Below are positions 46,809-63,147 of a stretch of 64,000 nucleotides of DNA, piece by piece. Made by a program: the position numbers and the translations under genes. How positions within the stretch are numbered: position 1 is the stretch's first letter; the number at the start of each line of letters is the position of its first letter. The stretch lies in sequence record KY000079.2. One strand, 5' to 3'. Below the pieces are notes generated by a model. The model had not been told where the DNA came from. It saw only the letters and a program-made list of their open reading frames with translations, and ran no database searches. This DNA is from Acinetobacter phage AM24.

Positions 46809-47015
46809 ATGAGTAATATTAAAGTGGGTGATAAAGTAGAGGTTGTGAATACAGGTCTATTTGGATGGAATGTCCACATAGGACATGTTGGTACAGTGAA
46901 AAACATAGTGGGTGATTTTGAAATAGAGGTGTATTTTGATAGTATTGGGGATGGACTAACCCAATGGGTTCACTACCCAACTTGGGAACGTTGGGTAAAA
47001 GTTATTAGGGAGTAA
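46809..47015 (+). CDS. Small paralog-family protein (IKVGDKVEVVN...HVGTVK)
   Basis: RBS GAGGAGGG. Carries the family motif. Confidence 0.55.
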   Translation: MSNIKVGDKVEVVNTGLFGWNVHIGHVGTVKNIVGDFEIEVYFDSIGDGLTQWVHYPTWERWVKVIRE

Positions 47016-47018
47016 TTC

Positions 47019-47279
47019 ATGGGTAGACCAAATATAAGGGTTGGTGATACTGTGAGGATTTGTAAAAAAGATATCTTTGCACCTTTTGTTAGAAAAGGTG
47101 ATCTTGCAATAGTGAAAGATATGCAGTTTGATGAGGATTGTGTTGACCTATGGTTAGACAGTTTTGGTTGGCACCACGAGCAAGTTGTAACAATTAGCAG
47201 GAATAGATCATATCCACCAAATAAATATATAACTTTTCTCCATCAATCTCAAAAACTTGTTGACAAACCTTCCGAATAA
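47019..47279 (+). CDS. Small paralog-family protein (IRVGDTVRI...KGDLAIVK)
   Basis: RBS AGGGAG. Confidence 0.5.
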   Translation: MGRPNIRVGDTVRICKKDIFAPFVRKGDLAIVKDMQFDEDCVDLWLDSFGWHHEQVVTISRNRSYPPNKYITFLHQSQKLVDKPSE

Positions 47280-47288
47280 CCTTAATAT
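47260..47288 (+). promoter_or_regulatory. Sigma70-like promoter (AAAAACTTGTTGACA, 17-nt spacer, TAATAT)
   Basis: Perfect -35 and good -10. Confidence 0.55.
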
Positions 47289-47323
47289 TCAACCATAAGA
47301 TAAACACTTAGTTTGGAGTTAAA

Positions 47324-48151
47324 ATGTTAAAAAAGATTGCTTTAGTTGGTGCGTTAGTTGCTTCGGCAGTTTCATTCACAGGTTGTACACGAGTTACTGA
47401 TGCAGAGGTTGGTGTGAAGACTAGCTTCACTGGTAAGATTTCTGATTCACCACAATATCAAGGCTTGTATTTCCCTTGGGTATATAGCTTAGATAAATTC
47501 TCTACACGTAACCTGATTATTGATGTTTCTGGTCAGCCTATTGTTGAGAATGTGCAGATGGATGGTATGACCATTCGGGTAAACTACTCAATTAAACCTG
47601 AACTTGCACCTGAAATGTGGAAAACACAGAAGGCACAACACATGGTTCGTGGAGGTGGAGAGGGTGATGAAAAACGTGAGATATTCCTCATGGGTTTATA
47701 TGTTGAGACAATCTCTCGTAATGTCATGATGGATGTGGTTAAGAACTACAAAGCCTTGGAGGTAAACTCTAAGCGTACAGAGATTGAGCCAATCTTAAAA
47801 GCTCAGATTGTGAAGACAATCAATGCCAACGGTCGTGGTAAGTATGTGAATATTAATGAGGTGGTTATTATTAATTCACAACCACCGAAATCTGTTATGG
47901 ATTCCGCTAAGCGTTACTTGACATCACTAAACGACTTACGCACAAAGCAGAATGAAGTAGAGATTGCTAAGCAAGAATCTGAGCGATTAAAAGCTTTGGC
48001 TTCACAGGCAAATGAAACTACTTTAGACTACATGAGAGCACAAGCCCAATTGAATAACTCAGAAGCAATGATGGAAATGGCTCGTAATAAGAGTGTAAAT
48101 AAGTTGATCATTGCACCAATGAATATTACTTCATTAGGTAAGTTGGACTAG
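47324..48151 (+). CDS. Lipoprotein with an SPFH/band-7-like domain and a C-terminal coiled coil
   Basis: Signal peptide plus lipobox (LVGALVASAVSFTGC). QPIVENVQMDGMTIRVNYSI is SPFH-like. Confidence 0.45.
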   Translation: MLKKIALVGALVASAVSFTGCTRVTDAEVGVKTSFTGKISDSPQYQGLYFPWVYSLDKFSTRNLIIDVSGQPIVENVQMDGMTIRVNYSIKPELAPEMWKTQKAQHMVRGGGEGDEKREIFLMGLYVETISRNVMMDVVKNYKALEVNSKRTEIEPILKAQIVKTINANGRGKYVNINEVVIINSQPPKSVMDSAKRYLTSLNDLRTKQNEVEIAKQESERLKALASQANETTLDYMRAQAQLNNSEAMMEMARNKSVNKLIIAPMNITSLGKLD

Positions 48152-48164
48152 TACTAAATATACT

Positions 48165-48191
48165 GGGGAGTTATCCTCCCCAAATCTTTTT
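48165..48191 (+). terminator. Hairpin terminator candidate
   Basis: GGGGAGTTATCCTCCCC followed by AAATCTTTTT. Confidence 0.4.
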
Positions 48192-48201
48192 GGAGATTTA
48201 T

Positions 48202-48672
48202 ATGTCTTGGTTTAGTAAGATATTTGGTGGTAAAGTTGTACAACAGCAAAATATAATGTCTAGTGGATCAGTAGTTGCTGGAGATTATGTTGGAAGAAAT
48301 AACAATGGTAGTAATTCAGTAGGTTTTGATGTGACATTATCTGGTGGGTCTGTAAATATTAATGGCAGAAAATACACAGGGCGAAACATCCAAATTAATG
48401 GTGATCAAGTTATTGTTGATGGTGTAGTGAAAAGTACAGTGCAGTCAGGTCCAATAAATGTCGCTGTGAATGGTCATGTTGAAGATCTCAAAACAGTATC
48501 TGGTGATGTTACTGTCCAGAGTGGAACTGTTGGGAATATTCAAACAACCTCTGGAAATATCAATGTAAATGGTGATGTTCAAGGAAACATTAAAACAGTA
48601 TCGGGAAATGTTAAGGGCCATAAGCTTGAAGGGGATGCACGTACAGTATCTGGCGATATAAAAACCCGTTAA
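48202..48672 (+). CDS. Repeat protein with (T)VSG(D/N)(V/I) hexapeptide-like repeats (bactofilin or beta-helix-like)
   Basis: TVSGDVTVQSGTVGNIQTTSGNINVNGDVQGNIKTVSGNVKG...TVSGDIKT. Confidence 0.45.
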   Translation: MSWFSKIFGGKVVQQQNIMSSGSVVAGDYVGRNNNGSNSVGFDVTLSGGSVNINGRKYTGRNIQINGDQVIVDGVVKSTVQSGPINVAVNGHVEDLKTVSGDVTVQSGTVGNIQTTSGNINVNGDVQGNIKTVSGNVKGHKLEGDARTVSGDIKTR

Positions 48673-48683
48673 GGAGTTGTTAA

Positions 48684-48851
48684 GTGAATGCATTTATCTT
48701 ATGGTTTATGGTATTTATGCTTTACCTTTTGGTATGGCGTGTGGTAAAATTATATAAAGAAGATAAGGTTGGGGAGTTCTTTACAATGATGTGTATTGTA
48801 ATGCTGCCAATACTAACAACTGCTATCTCTAAAGCTGTATTAAGTAGTTAA
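48684..48851 (+). CDS. Small 2-TM membrane peptide (55 aa) not in the ORF track; GTG start
   Basis: RBS AAGGAG 7 nt upstream of the GTG. MNAFILWFMVFMLYLLVWRVV...MMCIVMLPILTTAI. Confidence 0.4.
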   Translation: MNAFILWFMVFMLYLLVWRVVKLYKEDKVGEFFTMMCIVMLPILTTAISKAVLSS

Positions 48852-48864
48852 TTAGGAGAAATAT

Positions 48865-49212
48865 ATGTCAAAGAATTCACATGTAAATACATTGGAAGTT
48901 GTGAATGGTGGTAATCCTGTAGTTAGTATTCAAGATTTGAACACTGCACGTAAAAACAAGTTGTTCCATGATGGTTTACAACGTGTATATGAAAAGATGT
49001 ACCGTAGTGGTTTTATGAAAGATACCACACCAAAACAACAAAAGATGATTGAGGAAGAACCAATCATGATGTTATCTCGTGAGTTATATCCATCACGACA
49101 AGCATACCGACATGCGCTTCGCAGTTGGGCTAAACAGAAAGAGCGATTTGAAAAGGCTGCATCTCGTGGATTGCTTGCAGAGCACTTGAAGGTTCACTTA
49201 TATGGTCTTTAA
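48865..49212 (+). CDS. Hypothetical protein
   Basis: RBS AGGAGAAA. Confidence 0.45.
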   Translation: MSKNSHVNTLEVVNGGNPVVSIQDLNTARKNKLFHDGLQRVYEKMYRSGFMKDTTPKQQKMIEEEPIMMLSRELYPSRQAYRHALRSWAKQKERFEKAASRGLLAEHLKVHLYGL

Positions 49213-49224
49213 TTACTAAGATAA

Positions 49225-49246
49225 GCCCCGAAAGGGGTTTTCTTGT
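49225..49246 (+). terminator. Short hairpin terminator (CCCCGAAAGGGG followed by TTTTCTTGTTT)
   Basis: Seen in the sequence. Confidence 0.45.
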
Positions 49247-49259
49247 TTAGGAGGTTTGT

Positions 49260-49457
49260 GTGGATAAATTTAAAGTTGGAGATGCTGTTAAGGTGGTTGC
49301 AACGAAGTCTGAATTAAATTCAATTTTTGCACCACTACACCTAAAAGGTTTTGTTGGTGTCATAACAAACATAAATTTTGATGGTTTCTACAGAGTTAGG
49401 TTTGAGGATGATTGGTGGAATCTAAGAGAGTGTGATATCGATAAGGTGGTAGGATGA
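49260..49457 (+). CDS. Small paralog-family protein (FKVGDAVKVV...KGFVGVIT); GTG start
   Basis: RBS TAGGAGG. Confidence 0.55.
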   Translation: MDKFKVGDAVKVVATKSELNSIFAPLHLKGFVGVITNINFDGFYRVRFEDDWWNLRECDIDKVVG

Positions 49458-49666
49458 GTATAAATACACAAAACATTAAAATGGGAGATAAAGTTAAAGT
49501 TATCTCCACTGAACGTCAACTTTCTGAGATTGGTGCATCTGGAGATAACCTCAAAGGAAAGATTGGTGTGGTAACTAGCATCTTTAGTTATGGTTTTGCT
49601 GTTGAATTTGATAAAAGTGGGTGTTGGTGTTTGAGGTTTAAAGATGTCCATAAAGTTTTAGAATGA
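49454..49666 (+). CDS. Small paralog-family protein (IKMGDKVKVI...KGKIGVVT)
   Basis: ATGA overlap indicates translational coupling. Confidence 0.55.
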   Translation: MSINTQNIKMGDKVKVISTERQLSEIGASGDNLKGKIGVVTSIFSYGFAVEFDKSGCWCLRFKDVHKVLE

Positions 49667-49689
49667 TTGTTGTGCAAGTGTAAATTAAT

Positions 49690-49718
49690 TTGACAAGTTT
49701 AACTTTTGATGATATACA
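49690..49718 (+). promoter_or_regulatory. Sigma70-like promoter candidate (TTGACA, 17-nt spacer, TATACA)
   Basis: Seen in the sequence. Confidence 0.4.
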
Positions 49719-49752
49719 TAAGGAACTATTAAACTTTTAAGAGGAATATTTT

Positions 49753-50184
49753 ATGGATCATCAAGAAAAATTTGATCAAAATCAACCAGAAACTTCAAAA
49801 CACAAGGGAACACCTTGGTTAGATTGGCTTCGTGGTACTATTGGCACCCTGTTAATTGTTATTGCAGTTGGTGCTTTTGTTGCGAATAATCAACAACAAC
49901 AATCGCACTCTATTGTAACTGCTATTCAAGCTTTGAACAAGGATAAAATTCGAGAAACATACTCTTCAAGTAACTATAATATTGCCATGACATGTGGCAT
50001 GGATGGTAACTACCAAACTGCCTCTAATGTTTTAGAGCTAAGTGATGTCAAAGTTAAAACCCTTAATAGTATTGTGCTGTACGACACTGGTATTGTAATG
50101 GCAAACTTTAGTGACAATACAAAGTTTATCACAGATATTAAAAACTGCACAATCAATGTTCAGAAACTAACTAAGGAGTCGTAA
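49753..50184 (+). CDS. Membrane protein (N-terminal TM)
   Basis: RBS AAGAGGAA. TM segment LIVIAVGAFVA. Confidence 0.45.
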   Translation: MDHQEKFDQNQPETSKHKGTPWLDWLRGTIGTLLIVIAVGAFVANNQQQQSHSIVTAIQALNKDKIRETYSSSNYNIAMTCGMDGNYQTASNVLELSDVKVKTLNSIVLYDTGIVMANFSDNTKFITDIKNCTINVQKLTKES

Positions 50185-50185
50185 T

Positions 50186-50320
50186 ATGAGGGAAATTTCT
50201 AAAGAGGGTATCAAAAGAAAAATTAAAGATTGGTACAACCTAGCAGTAACACATCCAAGGATTTCCTATGCGATATTCTTGGTGGTTGTTTTTTCTTTAA
50301 TACTTTTAAATACTGAATAA
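50186..50320 (+). CDS. Tiny tail-anchored membrane peptide (44 aa) not in the ORF track
   Basis: RBS AAGGAG. Ends ...ISYAIFLVVVFSLILLNTE. Confidence 0.4.
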   Translation: MREISKEGIKRKIKDWYNLAVTHPRISYAIFLVVVFSLILLNTE

Positions 50321-50334
50321 TAACAGGAGGTTAT

Positions 50335-50901
50335 ATGGGAATCAAAGGAGTTGGTGACTATATCCGCGTGACTGTTTCAAATGAAGCAAAAGCTGCACTT
50401 GCTCGGAAGTTATTACCTTTAGAGAATGTCAAAGATAAATATAGCGCATCAGCACAAACACAGCTAGGTTTTCCTTTTGGTGGTAACCTAGGGATTCCCT
50501 ACACCTTAGAAACCATGAAGAGACGCTATGTCGATTTCCTTGGTGAGAATGAGATTAAAATTCTTAGGTACATGATGCGGATATCTTTATCCTCAATTAA
50601 GTATGGAATGTACACCAAGCAAGATTACGCTATGGTGAACTTTACAAGCTCTATTGTATCGCCTTATCTTTGGGATGTTTATAAAGATTGGTTACTGTCT
50701 TGTGGTTTTACCTTAAGGGAAGACATCAGGGAAACTGTTTTAATTCAAGATTCTTACAATCAAGGGTCTGGAAGGTTTAAACTAATGTATGGTGCAAAAA
50801 TCTTTTGGTCAAAAAAATCTGAAGAAAATGTTGACTTGTTAGCTAAAATAGGTGTAGGATTAGGTATCAAAAATGGTTATGACCTAGAGGAAATCTTATG
50901 A
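50335..50901 (+). CDS. Hypothetical protein
   Basis: RBS AGGAGG. Confidence 0.45.
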   Translation: MGIKGVGDYIRVTVSNEAKAALARKLLPLENVKDKYSASAQTQLGFPFGGNLGIPYTLETMKRRYVDFLGENEIKILRYMMRISLSSIKYGMYTKQDYAMVNFTSSIVSPYLWDVYKDWLLSCGFTLREDIRETVLIQDSYNQGSGRFKLMYGAKIFWSKKSEENVDLLAKIGVGLGIKNGYDLEEIL

Positions 50902-51287
50902 CCGAATTAGTTGAACAAGCAGAAACTAAAGTAACCGATGATGAAGTTATTAAAGTTCGTAAAAGTGTGGTTGTTGATTTTATTATTAAAGATCGAAACA
51001 GTTATCTAAGAGCACAACAAGCACGCTATAAGAACATGAGATTGATTGATGGAATTTATATGAGATCGCTGTTCATATATGGTGCTTTGTCAATTTTATT
51101 AGTGTTATCATTACTGTGGACAATTGTTCGAATCATACTATTGAAAGAATTCTCTGATGTTTTATTAGGAGCTTTTGATGTAATACTGCTATTCATGTTT
51201 GCGACTCGAATCGATGGTGCATTACACTGGTGGGATGAGGAGGAAGAAAGATCTGGAGGTTATCTTGCCAACACAGAAACAGACTGA
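50898..51287 (+). CDS. Membrane protein
   Basis: ATGA overlap with the upstream gene. TM segment LFIYGALSILLVLSLLWTIVRIILL. Confidence 0.45.
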   Translation: MTELVEQAETKVTDDEVIKVRKSVVVDFIIKDRNSYLRAQQARYKNMRLIDGIYMRSLFIYGALSILLVLSLLWTIVRIILLKEFSDVLLGAFDVILLFMFATRIDGALHWWDEEEERSGGYLANTETD

Positions 51288-51735
51288 TTCACTTTACATT
51301 GAAATGCTGGAGCCTCTGAAGAAGAGGTCCCATGCAGTTCGAGCAAAGGTAGGAGCTATTCTGGTTACTCAACAGGGTAACCTTTTAGTAGGAATTAATG
51401 GTTTACCTAAACAACTTGGAAACAAGTTAGAAATTGAAGAGGTGGTACTTGAGAGTGTTTTCAATGAACCGCCAAGATGGGTACTTACAGGAGAACTCAT
51501 AACTAAACCTACAGTTATCCATGCAGAGATGAATTGTATATTAAAAGCCGCACGTGAAGGAGTGAGCACGGTTAATTCTACTGTCTATGTAACGCTATCA
51601 CCATGTGCTCACTGTGCCTCTATGCTTGTCTCTGCTGGTGTTAAGCGGTTGGTTTATGTTGAGGATTATCGTGATCCTTCAGGGTTAGATGTTTTGAGAC
51701 GATGCGATGTGGAGGTGATTAAGTATGAGCATTGA
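51235..51735 (+). CDS. dCMP deaminase (CDA fold, zinc-dependent)
   Basis: HAEMN...SPCAHC zinc motif. The start is uncertain (51199, 51235 or 51304) and overlaps the upstream gene. Confidence 0.65.
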   Translation: MRRKKDLEVILPTQKQTDSLYIEMLEPLKKRSHAVRAKVGAILVTQQGNLLVGINGLPKQLGNKLEIEEVVLESVFNEPPRWVLTGELITKPTVIHAEMNCILKAAREGVSTVNSTVYVTLSPCAHCASMLVSAGVKRLVYVEDYRDPSGLDVLRRCDVEVIKYEH

Positions 51736-51916
51736 AGATAAGAAATGTGAAAAATGTCCAACAGGCACATATATTCGAAGAGAGTGGAAAGAAAGTCTTG
51801 GAGAATTTGGTGATGTGAATGTTATTGAAGATATTTGTGATACGTGCGGTCATGACTATTGGAAAGAGCAAGCAGAGAAAATACAAGAAGCCTATTTAAA
51901 TGGGGAGATTGATTGA
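51725..51916 (+). CDS. Small zinc-ribbon protein
   Basis: CEKCPTG...CDTCGH. Confidence 0.45.
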   Translation: MSIEDKKCEKCPTGTYIRREWKESLGEFGDVNVIEDICDTCGHDYWKEQAEKIQEAYLNGEID

Positions 51917-52245
51917 TGGATATGTTGAAAGTTTATTTAAAAAAGAGAATGCTTGGGTGTGCTTTTAAAGGTATTATCCACCAAGGTCCTGACAAGGAAA
52001 AATTTCAGGATGCTGAATTCTTACTTACAAGAATTTCACATCGTTATGTTTGGGGTCATCCTGTAGGTCATCCAAATAAGAAATTCTGCTTCAAGTTTGC
52101 AGATGTTAGATTTTACTTTGATGATCAACAATCGGAACCTCACCAGCCATTTATGTATAAGTTGTTAGATGCACTATGTGATGTTGAAGATGACATCAAA
52201 AGTGGATATATTGGGTATTTAATAACTGACCAAAATAAAGCATAA
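51913..52245 (+). CDS. Hypothetical protein
   Basis: ATGA overlap with the upstream gene. Confidence 0.45.
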   Translation: MMDMLKVYLKKRMLGCAFKGIIHQGPDKEKFQDAEFLLTRISHRYVWGHPVGHPNKKFCFKFADVRFYFDDQQSEPHQPFMYKLLDALCDVEDDIKSGYIGYLITDQNKA

Positions 52246-52257
52246 GAAATTTAAATT

Positions 52258-54567: not shown

Positions 54568-54725
54568 TCAACATCGTTTATTTGGTTTTAGTTATTACGT
54601 GGAATAGTGGAACAGCAACAGTACAAGTTCCACAAGCAAATATAAAACAATGTGAGATTAACAAACAAGCACTAATTCCTGATGAGAGTGTTAAACGAGC
54701 TTATTGTATTGTTGGGGTGAAGTGA
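54564..54725 (+). CDS. Small signal-peptide-like protein (53 aa)
   Basis: ATGA overlap with the upstream gene. N-terminus MINIVYLVLVITW. Confidence 0.35.
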   Translation: MINIVYLVLVITWNSGTATVQVPQANIKQCEINKQALIPDESVKRAYCIVGVK

Positions 54726-54943
54726 TGCAATACTATCAACTTGGTGACGTTGTGGAAGTTGTAGAATTAGTGGCACTTGATAGTAAATTTGGTATCCAAA
54801 TTGGTGATGTTGCTAAAGTTGTTACAGTCAAGAATTTCCCTGATGGATCTCAGATGGTTGATTGTTACAATCCAAAGTGGGATCATGAAAATCTCAATGG
54901 TATTAGAGAAATGACTCGTTCTCAGTTGAAAAAGGTGAAGTAA
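54725..54943 (+). CDS. Small paralog-family protein (LGDVVEVV...IGDVAKVV...YNPKW)
   Basis: Carries the family motif. Confidence 0.55.
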   Translation: MQYYQLGDVVEVVELVALDSKFGIQIGDVAKVVTVKNFPDGSQMVDCYNPKWDHENLNGIREMTRSQLKKVK

Positions 54944-55173
54944 TGGCAGCAAGAGATTATGAAGATTACCCTTTAGTTGTGGGTGATAGAATTATTGTCA
55001 AGTACACTATAGAGGTCGATGAAAATAATGGTGTGAAGGCTGGTGATGTAGCCAAGGTTGTTTATGTGGATTTAGATCACGATGTTTGGTGCTTCAACCC
55101 TAACTGGAAACTTGGCAATGTTGAACTTGGTGGTAACTTCATGAGAAGTGATCAAATTGGGAGATTAAAATGA
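54943..55173 (+). CDS. Small paralog-family protein (VGDRIIV...AGDVAKVV...FNPNW)
   Basis: TAATG overlap with the upstream gene. Confidence 0.55.
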   Translation: MAARDYEDYPLVVGDRIIVKYTIEVDENNGVKAGDVAKVVYVDLDHDVWCFNPNWKLGNVELGGNFMRSDQIGRLK

Positions 55174-55590: not shown

Positions 55591-55785
55591 ATGAGTTATT
55601 TTAAAGTAGGTGACAAAGTAGAGGTGATAGAGGTTTTAGCTGCCGATGAGGAAGCTAATATTAAAGTGGGTGATGTTGCAAAAGTCACTGTGGTGAGAGG
55701 GCCTTTGTGGATTCAATGTGAAAATCCTGAATGGGAAGAAGGCTTCATGCCTATGAGAGAGTTCCAAATCAAGAGGGTGGGTTGA
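55591..55785 (+). CDS. Small paralog-family protein (FKVGDKVEVI...VGDVAKVT...ENPEW)
   Basis: RBS GGAG. Confidence 0.55.
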   Translation: MSYFKVGDKVEVIEVLAADEEANIKVGDVAKVTVVRGPLWIQCENPEWEEGFMPMREFQIKRVG

Positions 55786-55787: not shown

Positions 55788-55982
55788 ATGAAGTTTCAGG
55801 TAGGTGATAAAGTAGTTATCACAAAGGTTACAGTAACAGATATTAGATTTGGGGTGAAGGTTGGAGATGTAGCCAAGGTGGTTGAACAAGGTGACTGGGA
55901 TCCAAATTGGTACTATTGTAGAAACCCTGATTGGAAACAAGATACAGTCAATATGAAAAATGACCAAATTAAAAAACTCTGA
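55788..55982 (+). CDS. Small paralog-family protein (FQVGDKVVI...VGDVAKVV...RNPDW)
   Basis: An ATG at 55788 follows GAGGGTGGG; the track start at 55731 overlaps the upstream gene. Confidence 0.55.
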   Translation: MKFQVGDKVVITKVTVTDIRFGVKVGDVAKVVEQGDWDPNWYYCRNPDWKQDTVNMKNDQIKKL

Positions 55983-56001
55983 AAATAATTTTAAAAAGTT
56001 G

Positions 56002-56030
56002 TTGACAGGAAAATTAAAACCCACTAACAT
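56002..56030 (+). promoter_or_regulatory. Sigma70-like promoter (AAAAAGTTGTTGACA, 17-nt spacer, TAACAT)
   Basis: Seen in the sequence. Confidence 0.5.
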
Positions 56031-56118: not shown

Positions 56119-57312
56119 ATGGATTTACTTATTGGTCATTCTTACCAGTTAATCAACACTAAAGACCCAGCTTTCATGTTCACAACTGGTTTTAGTGACC
56201 CTAAGACAAATAAAGTCATTAAAGATGCTGTTATTAAACCTTACAGCAAAGATGATGATGGTGATGTTTTTGCTTATGCATACTTCCCAGATCGTCAAGA
56301 CACTATTATCAATCCAGATCATAATGTGTTGATCATTCGAAGTGAATTTGATTTGTTTAAAGAAGTTGGTGCTGGTGATCAATCTCAACCAGAAGTGGAT
56401 GGAATTGAAGAAAGTGAAGTATTCTCTCACAATCTTAAGAAGATGTTCCAAGAGATGGTTGATAAGAACCTAAGCTCTGAAGAGATGCAAGCGAAGATCA
56501 CTGAAACTATCCGTGAAACTGTGCTAGAGCAAGCTCCACGACCACTTGAAGTGAAGTTTGGTGAGAAGACAACTGTAATTGGTACTGCTCACGTAATGCT
56601 TGAAGAAGCTTTAAAACGCTTAAATGCAACAAAGAACATCATGTTAGTTGGTCCTGCTGGTTCTGGTAAGACTTACCTTGCAGCACAACTTGCAGAGTCT
56701 TTAGAGCTTGACTTCTCATCAATTTCTTGTAGCTCTGGTATGTCTGAATCAGTAATTACTGGTTGGTTGTTACCTGTTGATGGTGGTGCATTTGAATATC
56801 ATGAAAGTGACTTTATTCGAATTTACGAAAATGGTGGTGTGTTCTTGTTCGATGAAATGGATGCTGCTGACCCATCTATCCTATTGATCATCAACCAAGC
56901 ATTAGCAAACGGTAAAATTACTGTTCCGCAACGTAAAGGTAATACCGAAGTTAAACGACATAAAGATTTCATTTGCGTTGGTGCATGTAACACATTTGGT
57001 CGTGGTTCTAACTTGATGTACTCTGGTCGTGAACGTCTTGATGAATCAACACTTGACCGTTTCCGTTTAGGTTTGATGGAAATGGACTACGATAAGCTTC
57101 TTGAAGAAAGAGTTGTTGATAAAGCTGTTCGTGATTGGGCTTGGCAAGTACGTGCTCGAATTCAGGAAAGTGGTTTACGCCGAGTGATGTCAACACGTTT
57201 CATGATCGATGCAACTAAGTTATTACAAAACACTGATGCAACAATGCAGAAAGTAAAAGATATCTTCTTTGTTGGTTGGAAGGAAGATGAACGCCGAAAA
57301 GTTGACCACTAA
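56119..57312 (+). CDS. AAA+ ATPase (MoxR/AAA_5-like) with an N-terminal extension
   Basis: Walker A LVGPAGSGKTYLA and Walker B VFLFDEMD. RBS AGGAGA. Confidence 0.65.
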   Translation: MDLLIGHSYQLINTKDPAFMFTTGFSDPKTNKVIKDAVIKPYSKDDDGDVFAYAYFPDRQDTIINPDHNVLIIRSEFDLFKEVGAGDQSQPEVDGIEESEVFSHNLKKMFQEMVDKNLSSEEMQAKITETIRETVLEQAPRPLEVKFGEKTTVIGTAHVMLEEALKRLNATKNIMLVGPAGSGKTYLAAQLAESLELDFSSISCSSGMSESVITGWLLPVDGGAFEYHESDFIRIYENGGVFLFDEMDAADPSILLIINQALANGKITVPQRKGNTEVKRHKDFICVGACNTFGRGSNLMYSGRERLDESTLDRFRLGLMEMDYDKLLEERVVDKAVRDWAWQVRARIQESGLRRVMSTRFMIDATKLLQNTDATMQKVKDIFFVGWKEDERRKVDH

Positions 57313-57328
57313 AAGTCAACTGAAGTTA

Positions 57329-57360
57329 GCCTCTAGAGATTACTCTAGGGGTTTTCTTTT
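57329..57360 (+). terminator. Rho-independent terminator (CCTCTAGAG...CTCTAGGGG followed by TTTTCTTTT)
   Basis: Seen in the sequence. Confidence 0.5.
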
Positions 57361-57373
57361 GCATAAATTTTAC

Positions 57374-57402
57374 TTGATTTAAAAATAGAATTTGTTTAGA
57401 AT
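57374..57402 (+). promoter_or_regulatory. Sigma70-like promoter (TTGATT, 17-nt spacer, TAGAAT)
   Basis: Seen in the sequence. Confidence 0.45.
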
Positions 57403-57438
57403 CTACTTAGTTATTAAACTCAATAAGAGGATATCTCA

Positions 57439-58332
57439 ATGTATAAAGCTGTTGAAAATGTTAAAGGTTTGCGCGGTAAAGTGGCGATCGTTAAATATAG
57501 AAATGTTTCTGATGCTATGGACCACTATAAGAAATATGATGTGGACATCCCTTTCAAGCACAATAAAGGTCAGGTTTCAGAGTATCGTGGTGGTCATCAT
57601 AGTACTGATTGGACAGGTTTTAGTGATCAACGTCACTTTGAACAAACTATGCTTCATGGTGATAAAATCAAAGCGATTGAGATTGAAGAAATTCAAGCAC
57701 CAGAAGTTAAGGTTGAGTCACGTAAACGTAAACGCCACAAAGGACCTATCGGTGATACTTTAGATATTCATGCAGTATATCGTGGTGAATTAGATCGTGC
57801 ATGGACCTATACCAAACGTGATATGCATGATGGTGGCATGAAAAACATTACCCTCCTAATTAACATTGGTGATAACTGTGGTATTTCCTCACAGGCATTA
57901 GGGTGGCGTGGTGCAGTGGCATTGAAAGTCTGTGATGTGATGACTGAAGCTGGCTACAATGTTCGAATCATTGCTAACCAAATGACTGAAAATGTAACCC
58001 GTGATGATGATGGTTATGGTTACAATTGCACAACTGTTAAAGACTTTGATGAATACTTGGATGTTCCTAAGCTTGCTGCTATCTTCTGTCGTGCAGGTTT
58101 CTTCCGTTCAGTAATCTTCACCACAATTGTTTATGAAGCTGAATTACTAGGGAAACGTGTAGATTATGGTTTAGGTCGATCTATCAAGTCACAGAGTGAG
58201 GAAGGTAAGAAGCTCATCGAACATGTGCACCAAGACGAAGGATATATGGTGGTATTCCCTTCAGTGAATGGTAAAGAAGATGCTTTAAATGCCATGAAGG
58301 AGATCTTAAAGCCTTATTTAATTGAGGAATAA
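57439..58332 (+). CDS. Hypothetical protein, possibly a partner of the AAA+ ATPase
   Basis: RBS AAGAGGA. No recognizable motif was found. Confidence 0.45.
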   Translation: MYKAVENVKGLRGKVAIVKYRNVSDAMDHYKKYDVDIPFKHNKGQVSEYRGGHHSTDWTGFSDQRHFEQTMLHGDKIKAIEIEEIQAPEVKVESRKRKRHKGPIGDTLDIHAVYRGELDRAWTYTKRDMHDGGMKNITLLINIGDNCGISSQALGWRGAVALKVCDVMTEAGYNVRIIANQMTENVTRDDDGYGYNCTTVKDFDEYLDVPKLAAIFCRAGFFRSVIFTTIVYEAELLGKRVDYGLGRSIKSQSEEGKKLIEHVHQDEGYMVVFPSVNGKEDALNAMKEILKPYLIEE

Positions 58333-58334
58333 TC

Positions 58335-58616
58335 ATGGATCGTCAAGAGATGATTAAAAAGTACCCTATCGGCTCTAAGCTGGTAGGGAGGTATCTAGGA
58401 CACAAACAGTCTTCAAGTGAAATGATTTGTAAGGTTGTTGGTTATTCTGCTTTCAGAACTTCGATGTTAGTCTATAATCCAGAAATAATTGGTCATACTG
58501 GTACTGGAAGATGTGTAGATCAAACAGGATCTAGGATTTCTGGGGAAAAGATAAAAGATCTTTATGGTAACCATTGTTGGTATGTTAAATATGAAGATTT
58601 GCGAGGTAATCAATGA
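58335..58616 (+). CDS. Small paralog-family protein, subtype B (YPIGSKLV...CKVVGYS...YNPEIIGH)
   Basis: RBS GAGGAA. Confidence 0.55.
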   Translation: MDRQEMIKKYPIGSKLVGRYLGHKQSSSEMICKVVGYSAFRTSMLVYNPEIIGHTGTGRCVDQTGSRISGEKIKDLYGNHCWYVKYEDLRGNQ

Positions 58617-58906
58617 TTTTAGAAGAGTTAGAAGACATTGCTAGAGAATATCCAATAGGTTCGAAGGTTATATGCAATGGTAATCATCTTGGTTATGGGA
58701 GTAATGAGAAAGACTTAGTTTGTAAAGTTCTTGGCTATAGTCGATTGGGCTATGGTTTGTTATTATACAACCCTGACATTACAGGACACTCAGGGAATGA
58801 CTATTGTTTAAATGGTTTGCATGAAGAAGTTGATCAAAGCTACCTTGAGAGAAACTACCGAGAGAGTTGCTGGTATATTAGCTACAACATGGTTAAGAAG
58901 GTGTAG
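58613..58906 (+). CDS. Small paralog-family protein, subtype B
   Basis: ATGA overlap with the upstream gene. Confidence 0.55.
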   Translation: MILEELEDIAREYPIGSKVICNGNHLGYGSNEKDLVCKVLGYSRLGYGLLLYNPDITGHSGNDYCLNGLHEEVDQSYLERNYRESCWYISYNMVKKV

Positions 58907-58936
58907 TATACCTATAGATAAAATGTGGAGGTATAA

Positions 58937-59209
58937 ATGGTTGCTATTCCAAAAGATAAATTCCCTATTGGATGTAAAGTAAGGGTGATTAGTGGAGATT
59001 GTTGCTGGAAAACTGGAGATATTGGCAAGGTTATAGGTTATAGTGATACAGATGATGTTGTTGTATATAATCCACGTATAGAAGGCCATAATGCAGAAAT
59101 TTCTTGTTTTGATGAGAATGGTTGTAGGGTCAAAGATGAAGTAAGGTTAAAATATGCAGGTCATTTATGGTACTTCTCTATAAGAAGTATAGAAAGAATT
59201 GGAGGTTAG
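58937..59209 (+). CDS. Small paralog-family protein, subtype B
   Basis: RBS GGAGG. Confidence 0.55.
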   Translation: MVAIPKDKFPIGCKVRVISGDCCWKTGDIGKVIGYSDTDDVVVYNPRIEGHNAEISCFDENGCRVKDEVRLKYAGHLWYFSIRSIERIGG

Positions 59210-59212
59210 GTT

Positions 59213-59674
59213 ATGAGTAAGCAAGTAGAAAACCCTAAGTACAAAGCCTTAAAACAACCTACAGGTAATGGTTCATGTCGCCCTAAAGGTTATGGCTGGG
59301 TACAAGTTGATAGGTTGGTTGGCTCTGACAATCAGTATGGTATTGTAGAAAATGGTATCTATAAGGTTGTGGTGTATAATCCTTTAGGTGTAATTATTAT
59401 TACTCCAGATGCCCCGTATGGTGACAACACAAGAGAGCTAATTAAAGACCAATACCATTGGGTTTCATTTGATGATGTCTTTAACCCAATACCTGAAGAT
59501 GAAGAACTGAAGGTGGGTGATAGGGTGATGCTTAATCAAGACTACAACAACTATAAAAAAGGTTATGTTATGAAAGTAAAAGAAATCAGAAAAGATGGTG
59601 ACGATTTGCTTGTAAAACTTTGTAATCCGAGTACATCCTTCTGGGCTTATTCTTATAGAATACGTAAATTCTAA
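59213..59674 (+). CDS. Paralog-family protein with an N-terminal extension
   Basis: RBS GGAGG. Contains LKVGDRVML. Confidence 0.5.
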   Translation: MSKQVENPKYKALKQPTGNGSCRPKGYGWVQVDRLVGSDNQYGIVENGIYKVVVYNPLGVIIITPDAPYGDNTRELIKDQYHWVSFDDVFNPIPEDEELKVGDRVMLNQDYNNYKKGYVMKVKEIRKDGDDLLVKLCNPSTSFWAYSYRIRKF

Positions 59675-59693
59675 TTAAGTTTCCCTTGAAAAC

Positions 59694-59722
59694 TTGCACA
59701 AACACTCAAGAAATGGTAATAT
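59694..59722 (+). promoter_or_regulatory. Sigma70-like promoter (TTGCAC, 17-nt spacer, TAATAT)
   Basis: Seen in the sequence. Confidence 0.45.
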
Positions 59723-59758
59723 GCACCTATCAATCAACCAAGCATTATAGGTGCTAAA

Positions 59759-60223
59759 ATGGATAAACTTTTTAAGTATACCAAACTTCAACAATCTCAA
59801 AAAACTTCAAAATTATCATCTACTTACAATAAAGTGACTACTTATGTAGCTCGCTTTTTTCGTGTTGCCTTTAAAAACTTCTTAAGTATGTTTGATGGTG
59901 GAAGTCCTCAAGATATCATGCGAGATAGATTTAAAGAGTGGCACGAAGAGGTAAGTCTTGCAAATAAGAAGGTGGCTTATCAAGTTGGTCAGAGAGTAAC
60001 CATTAATGATGTTTCTTATTTTGAGAAATACAGAGGTTTTCATGCTGGTGATGTTGCAAAAATTACCAAATTGATTAATGAGGATGGTGTTGAGAAGTTA
60101 GCACTGTTCAATCCTAAATGGATTACTGCTAAAGATGAACTTGATTTGGGTTGTGTAATTGTTGACCCTAAGAAATGTATGGTGGAGATTGTTGGTGTTA
60201 AATCTGGGGGTGTAAATGTATAA
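59759..60223 (+). CDS. Paralog-family protein with an N-terminal extension (..AGDVAKIT..FNPKW)
   Basis: Carries the family motif in its C-terminal half. Confidence 0.5.
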   Translation: MDKLFKYTKLQQSQKTSKLSSTYNKVTTYVARFFRVAFKNFLSMFDGGSPQDIMRDRFKEWHEEVSLANKKVAYQVGQRVTINDVSYFEKYRGFHAGDVAKITKLINEDGVEKLALFNPKWITAKDELDLGCVIVDPKKCMVEIVGVKSGGVNV

Positions 60224-60425
60224 TGAAGGTCTGCCTGTAGATGGTGCTAAAATAGTGGTACATAGCCCTGATGACATATCTAGAAACACCCACAACGTAA
60301 GAGAAAACGATGTTGGTAAAGTGGTTGGTAGATATAACGGTCAAGGAAATGGAATTGTTGCCAAGAACCCTAACTGGAAAGATGGTACACTGTGCTTAGG
60401 TCCTAATAAGTACGAGGTAATTTAA
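60216..60425 (+). CDS. Small paralog-family protein
   Basis: 8-nt overlap with the upstream gene. Confidence 0.55.
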   Translation: MYNEGLPVDGAKIVVHSPDDISRNTHNVRENDVGKVVGRYNGQGNGIVAKNPNWKDGTLCLGPNKYEVI

Positions 60426-60426
60426 C

Positions 60427-60627
60427 ATGAAAGCTAAAATTGGTGATATTATAGAAATCACCACACCTGATGAAGAAAGTTTAAAAAGAGGTGTGAAATT
60501 AGGACAAATTGGAAAAGTTACTGAAGAGTATGAGTTCGGTTGTTTTGCCAAGAATCCTTTATGGGGTGAAAAAATTGTAGGTTTCTGGAATGACGAATTT
60601 GAAGTCTTAAATGAAGTGCAGAGGTAG
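60427..60627 (+). CDS. Small paralog-family protein
   Basis: Tightly packed against the upstream gene. Confidence 0.5.
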   Translation: MKAKIGDIIEITTPDEESLKRGVKLGQIGKVTEEYEFGCFAKNPLWGEKIVGFWNDEFEVLNEVQR

Positions 60628-60636
60628 GAATAAGTT

Positions 60637-60951
60637 ATGGAAAGTTGGGATGGTTATTTAGAAACATACCCTATTGGGGGTAGTTATAAGGAACATAGTA
60701 GTGGTACGGGTCAATCTAAAAATATTAAAGTTGGATCTAGGATTATTGTAACAAACCCTGACGCTGTTTCCCAAAGAGTTGGTAAGATTAAAGCTGGCGA
60801 TGTTGGTAAGGTTGTATGTGTGGATGCAGTTAATGGTATACTGGCATATAACCCCAACTGGAATAATCGAGATCGTAGTGTTGATGATGACTATGATTAC
60901 AATGGGACAGCTTGTTTTTTACTCCCGTATGAATTTGAGATCATATCTTAG
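60637..60951 (+). CDS. Small paralog-family protein
   Basis: RBS GAGGTAGG. Confidence 0.55.
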   Translation: MESWDGYLETYPIGGSYKEHSSGTGQSKNIKVGSRIIVTNPDAVSQRVGKIKAGDVGKVVCVDAVNGILAYNPNWNNRDRSVDDDYDYNGTACFLLPYEFEIIS

Positions 60952-60959
60952 GTGACAAT

Positions 60960-61145
60960 ATGGTGAAGATAGGCACTAAAGTTATTGTAAAGTATGTATA
61001 TTTAATGTCTACTAGTGGTGCAAAAGTTGGTGATGTTGCCAAAGTTATTGGTCGTTATAATGGCAATGGGGTTGTTGTAAAGAACCCTAATTGGTTGTGT
61101 GGTACACTATCACTAAAATTTGGTGAATTTGAGCTAATAAAGTGA
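60960..61145 (+). CDS. Small paralog-family protein
   Basis: Carries the family motif. Confidence 0.55.
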   Translation: MVKIGTKVIVKYVYLMSTSGAKVGDVAKVIGRYNGNGVVVKNPNWLCGTLSLKFGEFELIK

Positions 61146-61152
61146 GGATGTT

Positions 61153-61413
61153 ATGACTGAGTGTTACGGCTGGTATGTTCCAACATCACAAAAAGAGTAT
61201 GTTATACGAGTTGGCGATAAAGTTGAAATTATCGATGCTTGGGGGATGGATAAAGAAAAGGGGATTCAAAATGATCACATTGCCAAGGTTACTCAAGTCG
61301 GAGATAAATACATTTTATGTAGGAATCCAATTTGGAAAATTAGGGGTGATAGAGCTATGGGATTTGAACAAGTGAAGTTGATAGACTTATCAGATAAGGA
61401 GGAATTGCTATGA
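61153..61413 (+). CDS. Small paralog-family protein
   Basis: RBS GTGAGGA. Confidence 0.5.
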   Translation: MTECYGWYVPTSQKEYVIRVGDKVEIIDAWGMDKEKGIQNDHIAKVTQVGDKYILCRNPIWKIRGDRAMGFEQVKLIDLSDKEELL

Positions 61414-61667
61414 AAGAACCAGAAATTGGCACAAAAGTTGTAATTGTTAATCCTGATGATCATTCTCGTGGAGAGGGTATTGTGGAGGGAGATGTTGCGA
61501 AGGTTGTTGGGGTGGATACTTGCATAAAAGATTGTGATTTACTACTTCTCTTGCACAATCCTAAGTGGGAAAACATGCAAGAAGGTGTTCTAAGTTGCAA
61601 CACACCTTGTCATCTTGTATACTTATCTGAATGTGATATTTACGAAGAATGCCTTAAGGGGACTTAG
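61410..61667 (+). CDS. Small paralog-family protein
   Basis: ATGA overlap with the upstream gene. Confidence 0.55.
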   Translation: MKEPEIGTKVVIVNPDDHSRGEGIVEGDVAKVVGVDTCIKDCDLLLLLHNPKWENMQEGVLSCNTPCHLVYLSECDIYEECLKGT

Positions 61668-61669
61668 TT

Positions 61670-61960
61670 ATGAGTTGGAGAGTACCTGAAATTGGTGAGA
61701 GGGTTGTGATGTCACACCCTGATTATGAATCAAAAATACACAAGATTAAATCGGGAGATGTTGGAAAAGTAGTGGGAATAATACCTGATGATGACCCAAG
61801 CCTAGTATTACTATTCTTGTACAATCCAAACTGGGACCTTGATGAATACTATCCTCATGATATTGGGGATGAGTTTATAGGCGACCCTGAAGAAGCTTGT
61901 CTGGTGTATATTCGTGAATGTGATCTTCATGGAATAAATGAGAGTGAGGCAAAATTGTAA
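61670..61960 (+). CDS. Small paralog-family protein
   Basis: RBS AAGGGG. Confidence 0.55.
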   Translation: MSWRVPEIGERVVMSHPDYESKIHKIKSGDVGKVVGIIPDDDPSLVLLFLYNPNWDLDEYYPHDIGDEFIGDPEEACLVYIRECDLHGINESEAKL

Positions 61961-62060
61961 TGGAAATTGGACAAAAATTGTTGTAAAGCACCTAGATTTC
62001 TAGTCTAAACAGGATGTGATTAAATATGGTAATGTTGGTAAGGTATTTGGAGGTTGATTA

Positions 62061-62411
62061 ATGGCTCAGAAATTAGAGTTTCATGAAGGTTATGTCCTGA
62101 TGGATGGGGTCAAAATGAATGTTGATTTGGATTATACTGACCAAACAACAGGCTGGAGCACAAAAGATGTAATAGAAGCATTCCCATATGGTTGCAAGGT
62201 CAGCCTTGATGTAGAAGGTTTGGTTGGTAGAAAGGGTGTAGGTAAGGTTGTGGGATATTGGGATGACTGTGTTCTTGTTTATAATCCACAGAATACAGGA
62301 CACTCTGGAGGGTCATTTTTTGAGGAAAACAGGCATTTATGGAAAGAGATTTATAGTGGAAAATGTTGGTGGATTCATTTTACTAGAGTTAGAGATGTGA
62401 GAAAGATATGA
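62061..62411 (+). CDS. Paralog-family protein, subtype B
   Basis: RBS GGAGG. Confidence 0.55.
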   Translation: MAQKLEFHEGYVLMDGVKMNVDLDYTDQTTGWSTKDVIEAFPYGCKVSLDVEGLVGRKGVGKVVGYWDDCVLVYNPQNTGHSGGSFFEENRHLWKEIYSGKCWWIHFTRVRDVRKI

Positions 62412-62752
62412 GTGCTAAGATACCAGAAATACCACCTATACCAGAGCCAGAAAAACCTTATGAAATTTCCCAGACTGTATATAGTCGATTTAATCAGCAA
62501 AAGTGTAAGTATGAAGTATTTTCTGTGGGTGAGAGGGTAAGAATATTCCTTTATGGATCTCAATTCCTGAATAATTATGGAATTTACGATGGTCAAGTAG
62601 GGAAGATTGTGGAGATAAAAAAGGTTGATATGGGGAATGGAAGTGTTGTTGCTAAGATTTACATAAAAAACCCACTATGGCACTATAAATTACCTGACAA
62701 AGACCCTACAATAATGGAGTTTTTGGATCATGAAGTTTCCATATTGGAGTAG
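62408..62752 (+). CDS. Paralog-family protein
   Basis: ATGA overlap with the upstream gene. Confidence 0.5.
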   Translation: MSAKIPEIPPIPEPEKPYEISQTVYSRFNQQKCKYEVFSVGERVRIFLYGSQFLNNYGIYDGQVGKIVEIKKVDMGNGSVVAKIYIKNPLWHYKLPDKDPTIMEFLDHEVSILE

Positions 62753-62826
62753 GGAGTAGGGGTAGAGTAGTAATTAAAGTGTTAACTAGAGTAGCTATTA
62801 GAAATTATAAGTTTTAGGAGGATTTT

Positions 62827-63147
62827 ATGCCTAGTGTAGATTTTGAGAGTTTATTCAGTCTTAGTTCTGAGGATAGACCAGTAGGTTATCGCACAAAGGA
62901 TGTTAAAATTATTATATCAGTACCACAAAAAGAAAAGGTTATCTTTAAAGGTTGGGACATGAGTAGGCGAGATGGTGTCTGGAGAAAGATACCTGTAGGT
63001 ACAGTGTTTAAAGTTATGCATGTGACCAAGGATGGGAAATTTCTTGGATGTACAAATCCAGATTACACCTTAAGTGATATTGTTTTTTATAACACTGAGG
63101 TGGAATATGCCATGATTCCTGTAGAGTTGGTTGGAATGGAGGTTTAA
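62827..63147 (+). CDS. Paralog-family-like protein, the last gene before the terminal non-coding region
   Basis: RBS AGGAGG. Confidence 0.5.
   Translation: MPSVDFESLFSLSSEDRPVGYRTKDVKIIISVPQKEKVIFKGWDMSRRDGVWRKIPVGTVFKVMHVTKDGKFLGCTNPDYTLSDIVFYNTEVEYAMIPVELVGMEV

Follow-up and report, generated by a model that had tools for sequence, protein, structure and literature searches.

Lineage-specific domain expansions are already known from phages, as is the SH3-like fold in general. In Bacillus phage G, a zinc ribbon is present in about 35 copies (PMC7824862), which places many tandem copies of one small domain in one phage lineage. The Mind bomb/HERC2 (MIB/HERC2) SH3-like domain is otherwise known from eukaryotic E3 ligases, and neither a description of Mib-Herc2 domains in phages nor one of the gene family reported here was found in the literature. 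This family is a set of 23 small paralogous genes, or 24 when the marginal gene at 47019 is counted, in Acinetobacter phage AM24 (record KY000079.2), of whose 97-kb genome the last 64,000 nucleotides (nt) of the record, hereafter the window, were analyzed. AM24-type phages have been placed in the unclassified lytic myovirus 'cluster 13' (PMC11126041), and a genus has been proposed for AM24 and R2096, which differ in their early and replication modules (PMC8878043). Phages of this group, AM24 included, are under development for therapy against A. baumannii, with AM24 itself tested in mouse models of sepsis and burns (PMC11768871). What is new is how large the expansion is for a phage of 97 kb, together with the turnover documented here and the link to Mind bomb/HERC2 repeats. 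Genes are named below by their start positions and their coordinates are collected in Table 1.

A paralogous family with a shared motif and a predicted SH3-like fold

To delimit the family, all 315 open reading frames (ORFs) of at least 40 amino acids (aa) on both strands of the window were translated and compared all against all with phmmer. With expectation values (E) of at most 1e-3 the comparison gave a core cluster of 12 members (54704, 54943, 55591, 55731, 59759, 60216, 60427, 60637, 60960, 61153, 61410 and 61670), a separate cluster of four, referred to as subtype B (58335, 58613, 58937 and 62061), and the pairs 49260/49454 and 46809/47019. At E<=1e-2 the core, subtype B and the pairs merged into a single cluster of 18 members. 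A family hidden Markov model (HMM) iterated from the core converged after four rounds on 23 members, the weakest of which scored 3.5e-9, with a sharp gap to the next ORF (47019, 0.017). Because an iterated HMM includes its own matches, a leave-one-out test was made, in which 21 of the 24 genes were recovered at E<=3e-4; the other three, 62061, 62827 and 47019, scored between 1.2e-3 and 0.017, and the best non-member never fell below 0.027. The member genes encode proteins of 61–190 aa, lie between 44870 and 63147 and are all on the plus strand. Together they occupy 6,807 nt, corresponding to 37% of the 44870–63147 stretch, 64% of 54725–63147 and 7% of the genome, and identity among the paralogous proteins is 17–44%. 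These genes are a true paralogous family. A first-pass annotation of the window had described a dense same-strand array of small paralogs, and clustering, iterated HMM and leave-one-out test all confirm this description, with every example coordinate it gave for its subtypes A and B belonging to the family. Of the distant single copies that it also listed, 44870 stands, whereas 33175 and 33407 do not reach significance (E 0.05–1.4). The ORFs at the latter positions (33175–33420 and 33392–33646, plus strand) have sub-threshold matches only, to KOW (E 0.009) and Phage_ProQ_C_like (E 0.0006); they may encode unrelated SH3/Tudor-like barrels.

An alignment of 151 distinct sequences from seven phages, numbered on a 64-aa protein, has its conserved columns at G6, K8, V9, I11, G26, V28, A/G29, K30, V31, N46, P47 and W49, while the variable positions with most insertions are 12–21, 33–41 and 50–55. 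The bipartite motif of the first-pass annotation is real, with G6, G26, V28, K30, V31, N46, P47 and W49 among the conserved columns. The AlphaFold model of a core protein (55788) is a five-stranded SH3-like barrel with a predicted local distance difference test (pLDDT) score of 96.8, and in that of a subtype B protein (58937) an insertion adds a loop and a helix to this barrel (pLDDT 85.7). A small SH3-like barrel, suspected before any modelling, is therefore predicted for both subtypes, with five antiparallel strands that would form a small, partly open barrel. The core elements of the barrel are VGDkV as strand 1 and GDVaKVv as strand 2, with NPxW following strand 3, and going by the strand pattern the conserved polar residues may be gathered in one exposed patch. 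Sequence, length and charge vary freely in the RT-like and n-Src-like loops, in the region after NPxW and at the termini. The RT-like and n-Src-like loops form the ligand-binding face of canonical SH3 domains. Isoelectric points (pI) of the window members range from 4.4 to 9.8. All window members are single-domain proteins, one of which (59213) has a degenerate second copy, visible as two HMM stretches with E 0.57 and 3.6e-13.

Structure matches in BFVD were AM24 and R2096 proteins. The list of other structures compared is headed by the N-terminal domain of Hpy99I (9.1), followed by NusG (8.5), Xrn1 (8.5), the Spt5 KOW domains (8.2–8.4), OapB (8.3), PsaE (about 8), MIB1 (7.7), YorP (7.2) and HERC2 (7.1). 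These top structural matches favor KOW/Tudor-like barrels that would attach to nucleic acid (RNA or DNA) or to machinery (RNA polymerase, Rho or the ribosome) and tune phage versus host transcription or translation, with the NusG/Spt5 KOW domains, OapB and ribosomal L14, L24 and L21e as parallels. Some members are basic (pI 9.1–9.8), and the conserved Lys-aromatic set K30, Y45 and W49 could touch nucleic acid. Nevertheless, most members are acidic or neutral, 14 of the 24 having a pI below 6.2, and with RNA polymerase, the ribosome or a similarly conserved target, a need for 18–29 variable copies per phage (see below) is hard to explain. This is the main rival to the host-directed protein binders discussed below, and on present evidence we regard it as unlikely.

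The sequence relationships point elsewhere than to KOW. No member scored above threshold in Pfam or NCBIfam (Pfam gathering cut-offs: SH3_15, 24 bits; MIB_HERC2, 33.5 bits; KOW, 22.3 bits). For SH3_15 (PF18346) the best member reached 15.1 bits (E 0.028) and only 2 of the 24 appeared at all, no window member was listed for MIB_HERC2 (PF06701), and for KOW (PF00467) a single member appeared with E 0.061; the KOW likeness is structural only. Weak profile matches to ribosomal L14, L21e and S17 and to Pfam KOW count in favor of the KOW-like reading. In PHROGs, 17 of the 24 members match phrog_5785 (best E 3e-24) and all four subtype B members match phrog_16588 (best E 5.4e-41). A PDB-wide profile search gave one significant sequence match, HERC2 (9l8y, E 2.4e-6), the rest being noise. 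Among 412 matches at E<=1e-3 in a profile search of 1.84 billion representative proteins, the top ones were long tandem-repeat proteins with Pfam Mind bomb SH3 repeats, some with RING fingers, from Cafeteria and a fish. When the family was aligned with the SH3_15 repeats of these Cafeteria, fish and RING-finger proteins by hhalign, the probability was 94.3% (E 1e-7), with VGDkVeV paired to VGdrVrV, GDVgKV to g.VG.V and NP to FP. On the basis of the HERC2 match in PDB, the tandem SH3_15 proteins at the top of the large search and the hhalign result, the family would best be regarded as a viral branch of the MIB/HERC2-SH3_15 assemblage that is divergent and stand-alone and falls below the Pfam membership thresholds. 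The only significant sequence links are thus to peptide-binding MIB/HERC2-type repeats, which speaks against the KOW/Tudor-like alternative. The remark in the first-pass annotation that it knew of no named family with this signature holds in so far as no Pfam or NCBIfam model passes its cut-off and the PHROGs are unnamed, but it has to be amended in that profile methods link the family to the Mind bomb/HERC2 SH3 repeats, with HERC2 as the sole significant PDB sequence match.

Turnover among AM24-like phages and possible function

A megablast search with positions 54000–63200 returned seven records only, all from A. baumannii myoviruses of about 97–102 kb: Mithridates, Bestia, Herod, YMC13/03/R2096 (two records), P577 and Ab15. 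This part of the array aligns with its relatives over 65–76% of its length at 92–94% identity, compared with 99% coverage and 97.4–97.9% identity for window positions 1–25000, which carry structural genes and ribonucleotide reductase (Mithridates, 86% coverage), and 77–90% coverage and 95–96% identity for 25001–46800; window position 1 aligns with Bestia 34272. The array is the most divergent and most plastic part of the genome. The deposited genomes annotate each family gene as 'hypothetical protein'. A tblastn comparison of the HMM consensus with 50,697 phage records gave no match, probably owing to the low-complexity filter, and one made with a real member matched six AM24-like records only. 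Among the small proteins (<=160 aa) in the profile search results, 59 of 68 share 50% identity or more with a gene of the seven AM24-like genomes, and the contigs with more distant matches are again AM24-like. No member was found at E<=1e-3 in a whole-genome HMM scan of TaPaz (cluster 14), nor in scans of representative bacterial genomes and PLSDB plasmids, and a pattern scan of IMG/VR returned the YMC13/03/R2096 genome only. Judging from these searches, the family is essentially confined to AM24-like phages. P0152, a family protein with 90% identity to that of gene 60637, comes from the annotation of an A. baumannii 'plasmid' of 97,154 bp (ACT414_18650) that is absent from PLSDB; the 'plasmid' is probably the genome of an AM24-like phage entered under that label, or else reflects a carrier state.

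Copy number differs between these phages, a point that the first-pass annotation had proposed to check. The same HMM applied to the equivalent regions found 23 members in the window, 22 in Bestia, 29 in Mithridates, 18 in Herod, 20 in YMC13, 20 in Ab15 and 26 on the Logan contig L007, a range of 18–29. Grouping of 159 genes from seven genomes at >=55% identity gave 51 ortholog groups, only eight or nine of which are universal (listed as 44855, 54704, 55591, 58335, 58937, 59213, 59759, 61410 and 62827). Gene 44870 (group 0) is kept in 6 of 6 complete relatives, and 59759 has an ortholog in 6 of the 7 phages compared (the window and five complete relatives) and none in contig L007, while for 60960 no ortholog at >=55% identity was found in six relatives. 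Such patchy presence among near-identical phages, in their most plastic region, is what would be expected of accessory genes for host takeover or counter-defense. Four relatives (Bestia, Herod, YMC13 and Ab15) have the end of 61410 joined directly to the start of 62408 (window 61675 to about 62404), indicating that 61670 and 62061 form a cassette with breakpoints at gene boundaries. The 100 nt between these two genes (61961–62060) match the interior of a family gene of contig L007 (16314–16619) at 78% by blastn and translate as ..VIKYGNVGKVFGG followed by a stop, and for these two reasons they are considered a gene relic; within it, 62018–62044 is a copy of repeat D2. DNA-level repeats in the region are limited to motif-coding stretches of 24–47 nt with 62–88% identity, and repeats so short and diverged indicate that the duplications are old or fast-diverging. 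The family evolves by birth and death as a lineage-specific expansion.

The pooled ratio of nonsynonymous to synonymous substitution rates (dN/dS), determined against orthologs by the Nei-Gojobori method, is 0.34 for the family versus 0.18 for 30-odd non-family genes of the region, with 58937 (1.21) and 55788 (0.99) as outliers. This pattern indicates purifying but relaxed selection; the genes are functional, yet either less constrained than their neighbors or partly under positive selection, two cases that the sample is too small to separate. That the ORFs are spurious, or decaying duplicates without function, is hardly credible in this light: small size, the annotation as hypothetical in all deposited genomes and the one relic fragment would suit such an origin, but the pooled dN/dS, the ribosome-binding site at each gene, the confidently predicted folds and the retention of the same ORFs across seven phages are all at odds with it.

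A role inside the phage is a further alternative. The array is located downstream of the replication genes and on the same strand as these, eight or nine members are universal in the group, and a small SH3-fold protein beside a DNA polymerase has been noted in the jumbo-phage literature (PMC7824862); the proteins could accordingly be replisome accessories, assembly chaperones or minor virion components, with neutral copy-number differences. We consider this highly improbable, since these phages, though about 98% identical in their structural genes, differ in which of the 51 ortholog groups they have, most groups being patchy, and TaPaz, which has a similar virion and replication apparatus, yielded no member at E<=1e-3.

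We tentatively favor, with a little less than even confidence, the reading that the family is a repertoire of small protein or peptide binders directed against host factors, including defenses. The genes would be transcribed rightwards together with replication and nucleotide-metabolism genes, early or in the middle of infection, a timing on which their rightward position on the replication strand and the sigma-70-like promoters at 27069, 33669, 47253 and 55995 bear. Each gene would give a cytoplasmic protein of 60–190 aa with little beyond one five-stranded barrel, and each paralog, as a small stoichiometric binder, would have its own host protein or peptide as target; host factors, defense proteins among them, would thereby be inhibited or redirected for takeover or counter-defense. 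Host strains would differ in these targets and the repertoire would for that reason evolve by birth and death, through gain and loss of cassettes at gene boundaries and in conserved motif-coding DNA. We prefer this reading because the only significant sequence relatives are peptide-binding modules, because variation sits in the canonical SH3 ligand loops around a fixed core, because charge is diversified among the members, because gene content differs between phages with about 98% identical virions, and because fusions elsewhere join the domain to DUF3310, which is early and toxic. Further points are that no relative was found in representative bacterial genomes, that dN/dS is near or above 1 in two members, that the early and replication modules of AM24 and R2096 differ (PMC8878043), and that the array is on one strand with the dCMP deaminase, PhoH and replication genes and adjoins a cREC gene with a predicted counter-defense role. 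The host-takeover or anti-defense role proposed in the first-pass annotation is compatible with both the turnover pattern and the neighborhood.

The DUF3310 fusions come from 12 metagenomic protein clusters of uncultivated phages, in which DUF3310 follows a single or double copy of the domain. When the nine most divergent of the small matches served as search seeds, mainly metagenomic DUF3310-fused proteins of 210–250 aa were returned; two further matches (P0162 and P0163) are likewise fused, and one fusion gene adjoins primase and DNA polymerase genes. DUF3310 is the domain of gp1.7 in T7, of lactococcal SaV and of gp54 in mycobacteriophage Hammy; SaV is early and toxic and determines AbiV sensitivity, and Hammy gp54 is strongly cytotoxic (PMC10700055, PMC8306868). 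The fused versions resemble the 49260/49454 subtype, which is without NPxW, whereas a DUF3310 fusion is never present among the window members. A Rosetta-stone link between the family and the neighboring gene 45522 via DUF3310 was rejected, as 45522 is not DUF3310.

Several observations weigh against host-directed binders. No transcriptome was found, nor, in the literature, any demonstration that a member binds or inhibits a host protein or defense system. The SH3-like barrel is functionally promiscuous, and among the best structural matches are KOW domains associated with nucleic acid or the ribosome, as well as OapB, which binds RNA. The polar and aromatic positions D7, D27, K30, N46 and W49 are conserved in all paralogs, which could mean one shared ligand instead of many. 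The eight or nine universal members fit better with a core phage function than with an arms race, the elevated dN/dS may reflect relaxed constraint and not positive selection, and no strong promoter was found directly 5' of most family blocks. If the members do bind host proteins, they probably help to set the strains on which each phage grows, beyond capsule recognition, and they would offer a ready set of small, stable inhibitors of Acinetobacter proteins. A more far-reaching proposal, which we put forward as possible but rather doubtful, is that of a rapidly exchanging library (51 or more types in seven genomes, 18–29 per phage) in which each protein neutralizes a different host defense or factor, maybe through a common face that docks on the AAA+ ATPase/DUF7192 pair; it would constitute a new, fold-unified class of counter-defense or adaptor proteins related to the Mind bomb/HERC2 substrate-recognition modules. 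Whatever the function, 24 AM24 genes belong to one uncharacterized family that is also the chief difference between otherwise near-identical phages, and the array is a clean and tractable example of how one small fold evolves by birth and death in a phage of medium size.

Neighboring genes and transcription signals

The features of the region are listed in Table 1. For every member a separate ribosome-binding site of the GGAG/GAGG type is present at the expected distance. Neighboring genes overlap by 1–8 nt at eight junctions (ATGA or TAATG types) and are 1–3 nt apart at six others; the tight packing described in the first-pass annotation is therefore present, while the translational coupling deduced from it remains an inference.

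Table 1. Family members, neighboring genes and signals between 44870 and 63147 of the window. E, leave-one-out expectation value.
Position	Strand	Feature	E	Remarks
44870..45442	+	member, 190 aa	4.8e-6	N-terminal SH3-like domain, acidic C-terminal extension
46809..47015	+	member, 68 aa	1.1e-5	HYPTW replaces NPxW; sub-threshold SH3_15 E 0.028
47019..47279	+	probable member, weakest, 86 aa		phmmer E<=1e-3 to 46809; family HMM E 0.017
47253..47288	+	sigma-70-like promoter		AAACTTGTTGACA, 17 nt, TAATAT; within 3' end of 47019, 5' of Band_7 gene
47324		Band_7/SPFH lipoprotein gene
48202-48672	+	repeat protein, 156 aa		SG[DN][VI]-type units; phrog_3163 (unknown function)
49260..49457	+	member, 65 aa	3.1e-4	divergent pair with 49454; without NPxW
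49454..49666	+	member, 70 aa	6.7e-5	start overlaps 49260 stop by 4 nt
51199		dCMP deaminase gene
53932-54348	+	cREC receiver-like gene, 138 aa		Pfam cREC_REC PF20274, E 2.3e-16
54725..54943	+	core member, 72 aa	3e-11	ortholog group in all relatives
54943..55173	+	core member, 76 aa	8e-14
55591..55785	+	core member, 64 aa	1.4e-16	in all relatives
55788..55982	+	core member, 64 aa		100% identical to AM24_149; core protein modeled
55995..56030	+	sigma-70-like promoter		AAAGTTGTTGACA, 17 nt, TAACAT; 5' of ATPase/DUF7192/subtype B block
56119..58332	+	non-family pair inside array		AAA_5 (CobS/MoxR-like) ATPase and DUF7192 protein; Pfam, phrog_249
56119		AAA_5 CobS/MoxR-like ATPase gene
57439		DUF7192 protein gene
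58335..58616	+	subtype B, 93 aa	8.2e-5	directly 3' of DUF7192 gene; phrog_16588
58613..58906	+	subtype B, 97 aa	3.8e-7
58937..59209	+	subtype B, 90 aa		subtype B protein modeled
59213..59674	+	member, 153 aa	1.9e-5	C-terminal domain and degenerate N-terminal copy (has VYNP)
59759..60223	+	member, 154 aa	5.4e-10	85-aa N-terminal extension; heads densest block
60216..60425	+	core member, 69 aa	7.3e-10
60427..60627	+	core member, 66 aa	6.4e-9
60637..60951	+	core member, 104 aa	8.6e-15	among relatives, common to Mithridates only
60960..61145	+	core member, 61 aa	2.2e-11	ortholog group 17, window only
61153..61413	+	core member, 86 aa	2.9e-12
61410..61667	+	core member, 85 aa	6.7e-13	in all relatives
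61670..61960	+	core member, 96 aa	4.4e-12	in cassette absent from four relatives
61961..62060	+	intergenic stretch, 100 nt		family-gene relic; frame 2 gives ..VIKYGNVGKVFGG and stop
62061..62411	+	subtype B, 116 aa	1.2e-3	clusters with 58335, 58613, 58937
62408..62752	+	member, 114 aa	1.6e-6	N-terminal extension
62827..63147	+	last member, 106 aa	2e-3	100% identical to AM24_166; in all relatives

The ATPase/DUF7192 pair followed by subtype B genes is kept in all relatives, and this constant position inside the array gives rise to a further reading by analogy with the expanded substrate adaptors of E3 ligases, in which a conserved face of the family would dock on one machine, either this pair or a host protease, and the variable loops would bring clients to it. 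The family-wide conserved polar and aromatic positions alongside hypervariable loops would suit such adaptors, as would the fact that the nearest relatives are E3-ligase substrate-binding modules. The link to the pair is one of synteny, however; CobS-like ATPases are present in many phages without the family, no solved relative of the DUF7192 protein was found and the conserved residues may be purely structural, and we therefore regard a hub with adaptors as distinctly unlikely. Between the two genes of the pair the window (57313–57438), Herod, YMC13 and Ab15 have only about 126 nt, with a terminator-like hairpin. Bestia and Mithridates have a minus-strand gene of 873–876 nt at this place (L001 14774–15646 and L002 15811–16686, respectively), which looks like an inserted mobile gene.

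The cREC gene is located just upstream of the family block starting at 54725, and in the jumbo-phage literature the cREC domain is predicted to hydrolyze cyclic phosphate or cyclic nucleotide signals in counter-defense (PMC7824862). Herod and Ab15 carry an adenine/DNA methyltransferase and a DprA-like gene, and several relatives carry HNH endonucleases, all absent from the window region (L003 2577–3059, L005 2403–2885, L002 9944–10573, L003 7107–7736 and L005 6933–7562); genes present only in relatives mark the stretch as an accessory-gene zone. The repeat protein at 48202 has an internal periodicity of 102 nt (repeat D9) and is without a Pfam match; by eye it resembles polymer-forming, bactofilin-like repeats. 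Other paralog sets detected by phmmer in the window are 5405/5989/6559 and 4339/18849 (within 4339–7173 and 18849–19415, plus strand), and as the annotation of the related phage TaPaz has three paralogs for the tail tube and two for the tail sheath, both sets probably arose by duplication of tail genes.

The first-pass annotation had each block of the array headed by a promoter with an AAAGTwGTTGACA extended −35 element, and this part of its scheme could not be upheld. The pattern AAAGTWGTTGACA is exact at 27069, 33669 and 55995 and has one mismatch at 47253, with a TAAnAT-like box 17 nt on, and these four are the only sites in the whole window with 0–1 mismatch and a −10 box. The two sites inside the region precede the Band_7 and AAA ATPase genes and not family genes, and further AAAGTwGTTGACA matches at 55603 and 55809 are the K-V-G-D-K codons of two members. 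Promoter-like sites in the region number 63 versus 72.5 in shuffled sequences, showing no enrichment, whereas terminator-like hairpins are enriched (21 versus 9.4; for example at 45470, 45929, 48164, 49223, 52258, 55549 and 57328), which suggests that the region is split into transcription blocks, in a manner different from that first proposed. A second candidate promoter motif, TGGTAATRT, before the 59759 and 62061 blocks was rejected as occurring at chance frequency (3 matches versus 1.9 expected), and its copy at 62027 falls within the gene relic.

The array ends, as first described, at an 850-bp non-coding, repeat-bearing stretch, but no evidence linking it to terminal repeats was found, and the comparison once drawn with pre-early regions beside such repeats is not supported. 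In this non-coding record end (63148–64000), AACTTCTAGG-like direct repeats are clustered at 63920–64000 and also occur at 63256, a 24-nt inverted repeat is present at 63254–63277 and 63691–63714, and a near-consensus minus-strand promoter (63330–63302; TTGACA, 17 nt, TATAGT with TG) is aimed back into the last family gene; candidate roles for the stretch are origin, packaging region and regulatory hub. No Rfam match was obtained in 44–64 kb, including the 63148–64000 end, and no tRNAs were found. In YMC13/03/R2096 three consecutive small minus-strand genes (L004 26921–27633) match the family HMM weakly (E 0.005, 0.023 and 0.12), and the first of them, which the depositors annotated as Mib_herc2, scores 26.7 bits on Pfam MIB_HERC2 (cut-off 33.5). 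By sequence resemblance, divergent SH3-like genes may thus lie on the far side of the non-coding region, which in AM24 is beyond the window.

Comparison with known families

The closest named relatives, the SH3_15/Mib-Herc2 domains, share with the phage family an SH3-like barrel and the pattern h-VGD-+V-+V, G-x-VG-x-V and [FN]P..W. They differ in being tandem repeats within RING and HECT ligases, whereas the phage proteins are stand-alone single domains, and K30 and N46 are conserved as features of the phage family's own. In contrast to the E3 ligases, moreover, the phage proteins would act in a bacterium without ubiquitin. A phage-borne, stand-alone relative is thereby documented for this domain. 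The automatic clusters phrog_5785 and phrog_16588, both labeled 'unknown function', split the family and give no description of it.

KOW-type barrels (NusG/Spt5, OapB, ribosomal L24 and L14, PsaE and the N-terminal domain of Hpy99I) resemble the family in the glycine and hydrophobic pattern of the first two strands, but sequence identity is only 6–20% and Pfam KOW stays below threshold. The KOW motif is a tight hairpin between the corresponding strands, whereas the phage family has a loop of 10–14 residues with a short helix between strands 1 and 2. YorP of the B. subtilis prophage SPbeta (PDB 2heq) differs in being present as a single copy, with 18% identity and without a sequence-level match. 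The zinc ribbon of Bacillus phage G, alike in its many copies, has a different fold, and it is for the AM24-type array that turnover between near-identical phages is documented; because an AM24-type phage is only mid-sized, its single family takes up about 7% of the DNA.

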